From Spongospora subterranea f. sp. subterranea (lineage: Eukaryota), in contig JAUGWO010000038.1 in assembly GCA_049724395.1 (NCBI GenBank), forward strand, positions 186,001 through 208,632: a stretch of 22,632 nucleotides of DNA, in the 5' to 3' direction. A model generated the notes under the pieces. The model was not told the origin of the DNA. It saw only the letters and a list, made by a program, of their open reading frames with translations, and did not search any database. Positions 17,255 through 21,474 of this stretch are shown piece after piece (the stretch's first letter is position 1; every line of letters begins with the position of its first letter). A program made the position numbers and the translations under genes.

Positions 17255-17570
17255 GGGCCTACACAGAAACACTGGCCGCACTAACTGGCCGCAGTTTCTT
17301 GGCCAGTTAGTGCGGCCAGTGTTTTCTGTAGGCCGCTGCTATAATTCACTGGCCGCACTAACTGGCCGCAGTTTCTTGGCCAGTTAGTGCGGCCAGTGTT
17401 TTCTGTAGGCCGCTGGTAGGGTGTGAATTAACTGGCCGCATTCACTGGCCTGATTGATCAAAAGTAGGCCAGCGATTGCGGCCAGTTAATTCACACCCTA
17501 ACTAGGGTGTGACAGAATTCACTGGCCGCACTAACTGGCCAAAACCTGCAAAATTGCTCAGAAACTGGCC
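17255..17570. repeat. Left TIR built from stacked palindromic modules
   Basis: Module A (17256-17334), a 5'-truncated second A (17347-17411), module B TAGGGTGTGAATTAACTGGCC...GGCCAGTTAATTCACACCCTA (17417-17500) and half module C (17503-17553). All are built from ACTGGCCGCA-type units. Confidence 0.95.
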
Positions 17571-17859
17571 CAAAATTTGAAACTTCAAAGTCATAGTGTG
17601 TCTTAACTCTTTTTTCTACAGAGATGATTTAGTTTTTCACTTAATGCAGCGACGAAACACCGTTAATTCACACAACAGGCCGGCCACATTTCAATGCTAG
17701 CTGCTATGTGGAAGGCAGCTTCGAAAGCTGTCGTCTCTCCCATTACGTTTTCTAATTACAAAGGGAAAACTATCACAACTTGTTCATTTTTTTCTTGAAA
17801 TTGTTCAAGCGGGGCACATCCTATCAAGCGGCTGTCAGAAATGCATTCTTCTCATTGTA

Positions 17860-20800
17860 TTAAATCTTAACATAGAACACATAATAAGAGAGACTTCGGG
17901 TTTCAAATTTGCCTTCCACATAACAGGCTCTGCCGTCGTTCTCCAGGTCGTTGTAATAATACCAACCAGGAATTTTGACGGTTTTTTGACGCAAGATGTG
18001 GTTTTTTGCATAAAAATGTGAACCTGTGTCCGATGTGGATGAGATGCGAGCAACAAGACGCCAGTGGAACCCGTTAGCAGTAACTTGTTCATTACACATC
18101 AGGCTTTCAGATGCACACTCTACTGGCAGCTCGATCAACATGATATTCTCTGGCATTGATATAATCTCGCGAACATCTTTCGTAAGAACCTGGGAACCAT
18201 ATGAATACACAGCAACGGAACATGCTTTCAGCCTCTACCACATCACAGGCCGGGTCTGAGCAAAGTCGGTTGGTCATTTCAAAGGCACCAGCAGATAGTA
18301 GAAGGTCCAAAACCGCCTGCACAGACGAACTCGCAGCTTGTTCCACCATATACTGCCGAATGTTCTATGGAAAGCAAACTTACTGACTGTTAACCTGTTT
18401 TTTCACAAAAGAACATACCAGGATGAACCAGCGCTGGACACCGGGTTTCTGGATGGGTTGTATGTGCCCGTTATGGCAGATAAATGTACGCTGTGGTCGG
18501 GTGAATATTCATATGCCCATCGCAAGACGATTACTGACCTGTACGTCAAAGGATACTTGTTTATAAACATCTTCGGAAGCCTGTTTCAAGAGATGTTCTA
18601 AAACATCGAAAGGATTGCCAAACGCGTTGGCCGCATATAACTTGATATCGTGAATTATCCACGATGTCAGAATTCTTAGTCCTTTCGAAAGCTCTTTCTT
18701 GACGCGGTTCTCTGGGCAGCCTCGACGCTTGCTCAAGTGCACCATCGTTTTGGAGAATATATTCGTGGGGCTGTACTCGTTAGTTTTGATCTATGCCAAA
18801 AAATTAGTTCAAAGAAACTAATACCCGGCCTGCAGCATACATCAATGTAATCAAAAACGGCATTTAAACATTCCAAAATCGTCGTCACATAGCACGTATT
18901 GTTCGTGTGTGCGTAGGATTGATAGGTCACGTGTGGGTCTCGGGAGACGTTTCTACTGCCTTTAGGCCTTCCAAGTTTTGATTTAGATTCTGACTTATTG
19001 GTTAACAATTTTTTCGACGTGTCGGGTGGGCGTCCGTCGTTTTCATATTGCGAACGTTGACGTTTACGATGTGTGACGGCTGAGGACGTGGTTAAAGTAT
19101 GGCATTTTTCAATGCTCCGCTTCCATCGTTCGGCTACACCTGACAATTGTTTCGGTATCTAGACTACAGATGTGGTCTCAGATTGACTTACCGTAATTTA
19201 TCGCTCGCCCAACAAGGACGTCGGCGAAATCCTGCTCCAAAGTCCCAGAAAACAACATCAGAGATGTTAACCCGAAAACCATCGAATTCTTGGTTTCAGC
19301 AATTTGATAAAACATTGAATGCATAGCTTCGATTGGATTGGTATCGTTGCGTGACTTCTCTGCGAACTCTGCATCCATGAATTTCCTTTTACAACGGAAA
19401 ACGAGGCGAGCGACACTCTCTTTTAGCCACCATTCAAACCACATGGCAGCGTTGGGATACGTGACCTAAAAAAATTTAGACAAGGTAGTCCGTTACGCGC
19501 AAATCGCACTTGAAGGGCATCAATAGCGATGTTGAAAGCGTCCTCCATGGGTTCTCGAACAGCTTGCTTTACAAGGTGTAAAAACTGTCCATTGTCCCCC
19601 ATTTCTGATCCGACAATTGCAGAATTCCTACTGATTCTCTCCGCCGAGTTGATGAAGTGCACTTCACAGCCTTTGATTAGACTATTTGCATCCTCTGTCA
19701 ATGTATCAAGACAGCATTGAATTCCCAAATCCCGATAGTAATCGCTCAACACCTACAGCACAGTAAGTGACTATTGAGATTACACCTGTTTATGATTGAC
19801 CTTCACGTATGCTGCTACAAATCCCTGGTTTTGGGCTTTGGAATAATCCATAACTGCCCCACAAAGTTGACGGAACAATGAGACACGGTCATTCATCGTA
19901 AAGTCGCCAGGTTGGCTCCGTAACCGAGACATGATCATTTCAAGCAAAACCACGAAATGAACTCGATGATGCTCGCTGGTGAGCCCGTCAAGCCACGAGT
20001 ACAAAACAGGAACCCACCTTTTGATCAACACGCAGTAAACGGCAGACGTCATCAAGTATCCGTTTTTAAAAAACGAATACGTGACGTCAGAAACGCACCC
20101 TCCACACTGGCGTCCTGTTAGCTCGTTTTGATCGACAAGCCTAGGGAAGAGATGGTTTTGGAATTGGATGGGTCTCGCGCATATCTAGAAAAAAACCTTT
20201 CAATCATGAAGGGAGAAGCAACAGACACGTGCATTCGTGATAAATGCAGGTCATTGGATCGGAGGCTATTTGTGAACGTAGTTTGGAACTGTTTGATCTG
20301 ATCCAATGTTTCGGAAACGCCTGTTGCGTTGATTAGATTAAGAAAACTTTTGTAAACCTATGAAAAAAATACCTGGCAGTGTAATACCTAGTTCCTTCAA
20401 AATCTCCCTGCGAAAGTAGGCGACCCTGCCTTTGTTCCCGAAAGCTGGCGAAATGTGCCGTATTGATTCGGTGGACGGACCCGGAGCTCCAACGATCAGC
20501 TGCATCGCCGTTTTGTTGGGCGCAGCGGAAATAATGTCAACGAGCTTCGCCTTCGTGTACACATCCGGCTTGTTCGTATGTGGGACATCATGTTTGTGAA
20601 TGCCATGATGCAAGATAATGCACCGGTCTTTCAACCAGTGATGAACCCACAAAACCTTGCATTCGCACTTGACATGCTCAAGGTCCATTAAGCAATTCTG
20701 ACAAACACTATAGAGCAAGGAGTTATTTTAGCCTATTCGCAAGTGTAAAACGAACCTCTGTATGATCAGTGATGGCTTATTCTGATTGGGCCGTTTGATA

Positions 20801-21105
20801 ACTTGGCACTCGCTGTTGGAACAGCGGATAAGGCCCGCACAAACTTTGTATTGCAGAGTTATGGCAACATCATTGGTTTTGGGATTAAGTAATTTCTTAG
20901 ATTTTGTGCAGCGAAACTGCCAATGGCTGTATCGCTGCATCAAATTCGCTTTTTCCGACATCCGTTCGAACCTATAACTGCATTCACCGCTGATAGCCAG
21001 TGGAACGCCATCTTTGTCCAGCTGGTGCTCACTACTGTTAACAGGTGAATATGCGAAGTCCTGTTCTTCGAAATCACACGCTTGCCAATCCATTCGCTTC
21101 ACCAT
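17860..21105 (-). CDS. Transposase: GCM-type zinc DNA-binding domain + MULE DDE core + AT-hook + USP (C19)-like peptidase; 11 exons, ~914 aa
   Basis: GT-AG introns at 20708-20755, 20321-20372, 20141-20196, 19753-19800, 19466-19509, 19140-19191, 18791-18840, 18491-18538, 18365-18418 and 18190-18238 leave 2745 nt in frame with no internal stop. Motifs: YKVCAGLIRC..C..RP, HHGIHKHDVP; SDVTY (D at 20086-88), VMDYS (D at 19846-48), GCEVH (CxxH), TNPIEAMH (E at 19328-30); LGRPKG; NNTCYVTTILECL; GSHFYA; WYYYND; YYVFY. Confidence 0.88.
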
Positions 21106-21189
21106 GACGAGAACTGAAATGCGGACATCACGAGGTATTCCCTTCGCCAGATTTTAGTCCGCGCAAAATGTGATATTCCACGTGACGCA

Positions 21190-21474
21190 GTTTCTAGGCC
21201 AGTATGTGCGGCCAGCTTTTGCAGGTTTTGGCCAGCTAGTGCGGCCAGTGAATTCTGTTACACCCTAGTTAGGGTGTGAATTAACTGGCCGCAATCGCTG
21301 GCCTACTTTGATCAATCAGGCCAGTGAATGCGGCCAGTTAATTCACACCCTACCAGCGGCCTACAGAAAACACTGGCCGCACTAACTGGCCAAGAAACTG
21401 CGGCCAGTTAGTGCGGCCAGTGTTTTCTGTACGGTGGGCGCCGGTAGAGGGGATAGGCCGTTTTCTGTAGGCCC
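21190..21474. repeat. Right TIR (reverse complement of left modules C, B and A)
   Basis: C at 21217-21267, B at 21270-21352, A at 21358-21431, then a spacer and the terminal TTTTCTGTAGGCCC (21461-21474). Confidence 0.95.

Follow-up and report, generated by a model that had tools for sequence, protein, structure and literature searches.

A spliced MuDRF-type Mutator transposon of Spongospora subterranea with a predicted USP-fold protease domain

The element and its gene

We analysed a 22,632-nt stretch of the genome of Spongospora subterranea f. sp. subterranea (assembly GCA_049724395.1, contig JAUGWO010000038.1, positions 186,001 to 208,632 of the forward strand; hereafter the window), whose host species is a plasmodiophorid (Rhizaria), not a fungus. 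Positions 17255 to 21474 very probably hold a full-length, spliced copy of a MuDRF-type Mutator cut-and-paste transposon that has likely been amplified recently. Its single 914-aa protein carries a GCM-type DNA-binding domain, a DDE transposase core and, at the C-terminus, a USP-fold domain with predicted cysteine protease activity. The reading frame, its splicing, the conserved catalytic residues, the terminal inverted repeats (TIRs) and the host species are shown below, as is the USP fold of a full-length relative. The features are as follows.

17255..21474, minus strand: whole element, MuDRF-type Mutator DNA transposon, 4220 nt
21217..21474, unstranded: TIR upstream of the gene; 206-nt inner block and 52-nt outer part; foldback-type, with palindromic subterminal repeats
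17255..17553, unstranded: TIR downstream of the gene; 207-nt inner block and 92-nt outer part with an extra 77-nt repeat unit
20756..21105, minus strand: exon 1, first half of the GCM-type zinc DNA-binding domain; the first ATG (21105) is taken as the start without RNA-end mapping
20373..20707, minus strand: exon 2, remainder of the GCM domain; HxGxH at residues 150-154
20197..20320, minus strand: exon 3
19801..20140, minus strand: exon 4, catalytic D288 (20088) and D368 (19848)
19510..19752, minus strand: exon 5, CxxH motif C412-H415 (19668-19657)
19192..19465, minus strand: exon 6, conserved W473/W477 and catalytic E510 (19330)
18841..19139, minus strand: exon 7, basic linker, then the start of the USP-fold domain, which includes N636 and C638 (18894; predicted catalytic)
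18539..18790, minus strand: exon 8, USP thumb helices
18419..18490, minus strand: exon 9, USP fingers, first zinc-ligand region (C744)
18239..18364, minus strand: exon 10, second zinc-ligand region (C798, C803)
17860..18189, minus strand: exon 11, USP palm; predicted catalytic H863 (18018) and N885/D886 (17949); stop codon TAA at 17862-17860
17701..17926, minus strand: inverted repeat between the last codons (17873-17926) and the 3' untranslated region (17701-17754), 78% complementary
18281..20809, unstranded: stretch that a common derivative of the family has lost by internal deletion, with the frame broken; the joint, which has 3 nt of filler, occurs in six of eight sequencing runs, including both probable DNA runs

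The minus-strand gene comprises 11 exons. Its ten GT..AG introns of 44-56 nt (20755-20708, 20372-20321, 20196-20141, 19800-19753, 19509-19466, 19191-19140, 18840-18791, 18538-18491, 18418-18365 and 18238-18190) leave a stop-free coding sequence (CDS) from 21105 to 17860, of 2745 nt and 914 aa by our count. When stop-free paths with GT..YAG introns of 40-60 nt were searched for, exactly 10 introns were required in the real region, and no such path existed in 20/20 shuffles or on the opposite strand.

Splicing was assessed with public contigs of eight runs (of 24 listed), which were compared with the window. X16 and X17 (one study) are RNA on record, X3 and X5 are guessed to be RNA and X1 and X2 to be DNA, and X6 and X15 are of unknown kind. 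X16 and X17 together skip nine of the ten introns, X5, X6 and X15 skip all ten, and X3 skips seven; intron 1 is skipped in X3, X5, X6 and X15. None of the ten is skipped in the probable DNA runs X1 and X2. Every splice joint seen in the contigs sits on a predicted border, including that of intron 10, for which alternative sites would also preserve the frame and the contigs use 18238-18190. A preliminary description, made from the sequence alone, had joined short open frames across ten canonical introns into a 2745-nt stop-free CDS; the frame, the path search and the contig joints, which come from five studies, bear this out. An intact, spliced transposase transcript is thus present, and the transcripts fit the main form of the family, lacking three insertions specific to the window copy. 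A reading frame hidden by introns is ordinary for this host.

The inner TIR blocks (17347-17553 and 21217-21422) differ by two substitutions and one gap in 207 positions, in agreement with the three differences originally counted. Both termini start with GGGCCTACA, the 8-mer start of which is found in the window at 17255, at 21474 and at one unrelated site. The long TIRs are built of subterminal repeats with a common terminal motif, as in foldback-type Mutator-like elements (MULEs). Sequences resembling the element were absent from the other stretches of DNA in the same scan, and a TIR-pattern scan of metagenome contigs gave only two matches, neither related; with no transposase and a GC content of 55-59%, both were set aside as chance. 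The RNA hairpin predicted for 17701-17926 has a z of -7.07, with 0/200 shuffles equally stable, and is possibly a small-RNA trigger or regulatory element.

Transposase core and C-terminal protease domain

A protein search with exon 4 returned 357 proteins at E<=0.001, of which the best 150 were listed. Among 30 relatives that were looked up, the named ones came from Spongospora, Melampsora, Puccinia, Coprinopsis, Mycena, Leucoagaricus, Obelidium and Phlyctochytrium (besides Spongospora, rust fungi, agarics and chytrids), and the nearest among the matches listed was Spongospora P0151 (42% identity, 767 columns). A family profile built from 50 relatives, with the window left out, was matched by 9/11 exons, in order, along its length. 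Exons 1-2 match profile positions 12-215, and positions 11-156 match the mouse GCM1 structure 1odh (E 2.2e-17), with the Cys/His ligands of the GCM domain conserved among relatives.

The D, D, CxxH and E residues listed in the preliminary description proved to be family-conserved: among relatives with a residue at the position, D288 is kept in 48/50, D368 in 50/50, C412 in 47/47, H415 in 46/48 and E510 in 46/47. Two tryptophans between core residues (W473/W477) are likewise near-invariant. A structural model of relative P0027 gave Z 12.2 to GCM 1odh, Z 9.9 to the ISCth4 transposase and Z 9.5 to Hermes. The GCM domain and the DDE domain described for MuDRF are both found here within one protein.

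The expectation that annotation would be likely to miss such an element was supported. No Pfam model, GCM included, reached its cut-off on any of the 11 open frames of the window (0/11). A word-based search with exon 4 among proteins of 199-2000 aa scored 0/93 candidates, which is weak evidence, and one with the C-terminal part of P0004 found only P0004 itself among 977. Single exons and P0004 had no meaningful match among PDB sequences; GCM and USPs were reached by the family profile only.

A quick tree of 47 rows, with three near-duplicates and one short row left out, paired the window with Spongospora P0151 (SH-aLRT 99) within a clade of chytrid, rust and unnamed rows. The tree is unrooted with weak inner branches, and without a root or clade test we do not claim horizontal transfer from fungi. 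The full-length relatives P0027, P0154 and P0029 (927-1065 aa) are single called proteins on metagenome contigs of 3.5-5.3 kb and are therefore intron-free or transcript-derived.

The most unusual part of the element is its USP-fold protease. Residues ~625-914 align over their full length with the tails of relatives, and an iterated local profile recovered a tail of at least 285 residues in 28 of 159 sequences (window included; many of the others are fragments). Of 18 rows returned with the family profile, 13 are USP-family sequences (best E 6.8e-06). By language-model features, exon 11 of the window alone resembles PF00443 UCH clusters (score 0.94), as does the tail of P0004.

A structure was predicted for P0027 (927 aa; mean pLDDT 79.7, pTM 0.46). 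With Foldseek, its top rows were USPL1 and other USP folds (E 3.4e-12 to USPL1), and the comparison with USPL1 (VIA) gave Z 21.4 and rmsd 3.5 over 246 aligned residues, tied with USP30, USP11, USP12, USP2 and USP35. The palm-thumb-fingers fold is complete in this model and the zinc ligands are present, with Z 18-21 to many USPs. The triad C638, H863 and D/N at 885-886 is kept in 23 of 24 non-redundant domains, which are 13-29% identical to that of the window, and the 24th is truncated; the oxyanion Asn (N636 in the window) is kept in 21/24. Residues ~625-914 are thus predicted, from the model of the relative and the triad, to form an active USP-fold cysteine protease domain. USPL1 as top structural match was not accepted as proof of SUMO specificity, given Z ties within 1. 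Several longer relatives (P0132, P0074, P0117, P0120, P0130) carry a PHD finger after the USP-fold domain; the window protein has none.

Copies, mobility and alternative explanations

Over 18257-20667, contigs of the probable DNA runs X1 and X2 show no substitutions relative to the window, with the exception of one diverged X2 contig. Interior contigs free of substitutions stand at 6.0-8.2x (X1) and 5.2-6.9x (X2) the depth of the unique right-flank contig, and the deleted form (joint 18280-20810) at 15.8x and 17.7x, respectively; contig depth is no copy number, and the ratios are read with that caution. X1 and X2 agree with each other, and their ratios are most simply read as some six full-length copies together with more copies of the deleted form, which is 1.7 kb long and out of frame. 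Greater depth at the two ends of the gene was not taken as expression. In the contigs compared, CDS indels between copies are of 6, 6, 6 and 3 nt, with a single one of 1 nt. Both probable DNA runs also contain other rearranged forms, with a depth close to that of the flank: a 472-nt skip (20184-20657) and a 363-nt step back (20151-20513).

Besides the caution on depth, several observations weigh against the interpretation of the locus as an intact, mobile, protease-bearing copy. The first group concerns this copy. The window has 6 extra bases, in frame, at each of 18001, 19050 and 19599, private to it among the contigs compared: the insertion at 18001 is absent from contigs of 8/8 runs, that at 19599 from those of 7/7 covering runs, and that at 19050 in 4/4 of one contig set, with matching gaps in a second. 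One of the three sits 3 codons past H863. The shorter form at 19599 has the length found in relatives, so this insertion is likely derived. Since the contigs lack all three, the transcripts document the family and not necessarily this copy. Relative to the contigs, there is also a 2-nt insertion in a window intron at 18521; the occurrence of indels without substitutions over 2.4 kb of otherwise matching contigs is unexplained.

The ends raise similar doubts. Beyond the inner TIR blocks they are unequal, with 92 nt on the left, including the extra 77-nt unit, and 52 nt on the right. No target-site duplication (TSD), sought as an 8-12-nt direct repeat with <=1 mismatch, was found around either end. 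The immediate flanks are TTAGTTCAT and GTATTTTAC, which lack the 9-bp TSD of MuDRF; we therefore use the name MuDRF-type and stop short of assigning the element to MuDRF as a proven member. One X6 contig matches the window through 17254 and then continues with 14 letters unlike the element and unlike the right flank of the window, and no joint spanning the whole element was present among the matches listed. The X6 contig suggests that the left and right flanks are not one target site, and the TSD of this copy was likely lost through rearrangement at one end or a join of two copies. On the transcript side, the main X3 contig keeps introns 6 (19191-19140) and 8 (18538-18491), a retention that could be regulation, incomplete splicing or DNA, and the X3 contigs have no intron-10 joint. 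With intron 6 retained, the frame ends shortly past the DDE core, so that the transposase would lack the protease. A single base at 20406 is deleted in one X16 contig (depth 8).

There is accordingly a substantial chance, somewhat short of even, that the family is young while this copy is immobile or is an assembly join, with ends and flanks from two insertions and transcripts from sister copies. The missing TSD, the foreign letters of the X6 contig, a left flank that is itself repetitive and the three insertions missing from the contigs all favour such an account. However, both ends retain the same terminal motif, 8/10 like that of Muta1; unequal repeat numbers at the ends were no bar to Muta1NA1, as far as described in PMC5499845; and all three insertions preserve the frame. 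Contigs also drop rare variants, so the absence of the insertions is not established. Of what was first proposed, the intact coding frame, its splicing and, on the depth ratios and the deleted form, recent amplification of the family are supported. Recent mobility is not supported for this copy, given the missing TSD, flanks apparently from different target sites and three private insertions. Youth is supported at the family level; the family is intact, expressed and probably young.

The second group concerns the protease domain. The USP fold of the window protein is predicted through the model of a relative, P0027, that is 31% identical to it. The Pfam UCH model was matched by 0/40 and 0/13 relatives, and the domain is unannotated because this model matches none of the relatives tested. 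The ubiquitin-tail contacts of canonical USPs given in the available text of PMC8983731 (a Gln, an upstream His and a Tyr after the catalytic His) are not conserved in the family. At the equivalent sites, as placed by HMMER alignments, the window has neither the Gln nor the His, and Phe864 follows the catalytic His; the family is mixed. Ubiquitin as substrate is therefore not assured. Judged from these residues, the missing contacts lower the case for a ubiquitin-specific deubiquitinase and leave that for a predicted USP-fold protease standing.

The main rival to tag removal is that the domain is a self-processing protease that cuts a polyprotein, or a scaffold, and not a ubiquitin/SUMO isopeptidase, which we consider unlikely. 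Self-processing has been proposed for OTU domains on MULE transposases (in the part of PMC1702500 available), and would suit the long low-confidence linker between domains in the P0027 model (residues 582-622), as the unconserved ubiquitin-tail contacts would suit either role. Against both stand the complete fold with its zinc ligands and its high Z to many USPs, and the finding, in the available text of PMC9741609, that transposon VTD domains are real deubiquitinases; retention of the triad at such low identity argues against a scaffold. Domestication as a single-copy host gene of transposase origin is very improbable: ten host-like introns, expression across several studies and the lack of a TSD would fit it, but the long near-identical TIRs, the depth above unique flank in two runs and the common internal-deletion derivative do not, and intron-bearing autonomous DNA transposons are known (Ginger1 with 1-4 introns; PMC2836005, as far as available).

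For a MuDRF-type transposon with a USP-fold protease, the biochemistry of Muta1 (PMC5499845, text available in part) suggests that binding of the repeated TIR motifs would fall to the GCM domain, and excision and insertion at another place to the DDE core, and that the 914-aa transposase would also mobilise the shorter deleted copies in trans. Judging by fold and triad, the USP domain would most likely strip ubiquitin or a ubiquitin-like tag (SUMO possible) from the transposase or from nearby chromatin or repair proteins. Such removal could protect the enzyme against degradation or silencing, the same role as has been proposed for the OTU, Ulp1 and VTD domains of other transposons (accessible parts of PMC2836005 and PMC9741609). 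A more speculative extension, to which we give little credence, is that MuDRF transposons of fungi and protists carry overlooked USP-fold SUMO proteases, convergent with Ulp1 of plant MULEs, that undo SUMO-based silencing or the transposase's own inactivation, with intron 6 retention switching between protease-bearing and protease-free transposase.

Known systems and neighbouring sequence

MuDRF is a distant branch of MuDR/Mutator (Repbase MuDRF-1_PSt and others) with GCM and DDE domains in one protein and 9-bp TSDs, described from Basidiomycota and Naegleria (Cantu et al. 2011, PMC3164196, available in part). The present element shares that domain pair, and its relatives include proteins from Puccinia graminis, Melampsora larici-populina and Coprinopsis cinerea, which are reported MuDRF species. 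It differs in its rhizarian host, its ten introns, the missing 9-bp TSD and its protease domain, of which the accessible part of the published description has none.

Muta1, an active foldback MULE of Aedes aegypti (PMC5499845), shares the DDE core with a conserved W, long TIRs of subterminal repeats and non-autonomous derivatives, and its terminal motif GGGTCTACCC compares with GGGCCTACAC/G here. Its protein has 504 aa, and neither a GCM domain nor a protease is mentioned in the available text; its activity was shown, whereas the Spongospora element is known from sequence.

Ulp1 or OTU domains occur on MULE, Ginger1 and Helitron proteins (PMC2836005, PMC1702500), and the VTD domains of Helitrons are proven deubiquitinases (PMC9741609), each according to the portions available. 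The present protein resembles these in placing a papain-fold ubiquitin/SUMO-type protease C-terminal to the enzyme of transposition, with a PHD finger behind it in some cases, but here the protease has the USP (C19) fold. The one printed precedent found in the available text of PMC2836005 is a single Trichomonas protein that joins transposase_11, another transposase family, to peptidase C19. With USPL1, a USP-fold SUMO protease (PMC8983731, available in part), the domain shares the fold, the Cys-His-Asp triad, a Phe after the catalytic His (window and 17/28 domains) and the absence of a conserved Gln and upstream His at the ubiquitin-tail contacts. It differs in identity (15%) and in that its Z values tie with the ubiquitin-specific USP30, USP11, USP12 and USP2.

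We found no paper that assigns a USP domain to MuDRF or to any MULE; the search did not extend to Repbase Reports or to the majority of subscription journals, so an earlier mention is possible. The accessible parts of PMC5751038, PMC6431247 and PMC6446971 contain none on a MULE. Transposons have repeatedly acquired ubiquitin/SUMO proteases (OTU, Ulp1, VTD), and the predicted version with a USP fold, whose triad is conserved in fungi and in a rhizarian, would be a fourth class, invisible to standard Pfam annotation. Since the family is intact, spliced and probably young, assays of the protease and tests of its part in transposition are feasible. The element also extends MuDRF-type elements to Rhizaria and may be a source of continuing change in the genome of the potato powdery-scab parasite.

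The left flank (16300-17245) consists of other deep-coverage repeats, of which 17032-17245 resembles the end of another element, with continuations that differ in X6 and X15. The minus strand at 16323-16145 encodes the opening ~59 codons of a sister MuDRF-type transposase (97.6% identical to S. subterranea P0151 over 41 aa), beyond which come a stop and unrelated sequence; the end of this truncated sister element may lie in short repeats at 16510-16568. An inverted repeat with 58-nt arms, 81% complementary and 21 nt apart, occupies 15172-15308 in unexplained sequence.

Farther left in the window, ~6300-12880 on the plus strand holds an intron-rich gene for a P-type (sodium-exporting type) ATPase, one exon of which is 100% identical to a Spongospora subterranea protein. 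For the one exon searched, chytrid proteins (46%) outscore Plasmodiophora (44%). An intron of this gene carries a 160-nt tandem duplication (9901-10220, 99% identical), and 13810-13867 is 78% like the exon stretch 9845-9904. A 322-codon open frame at 4873-5841 on the plus strand is probably partly intronic.

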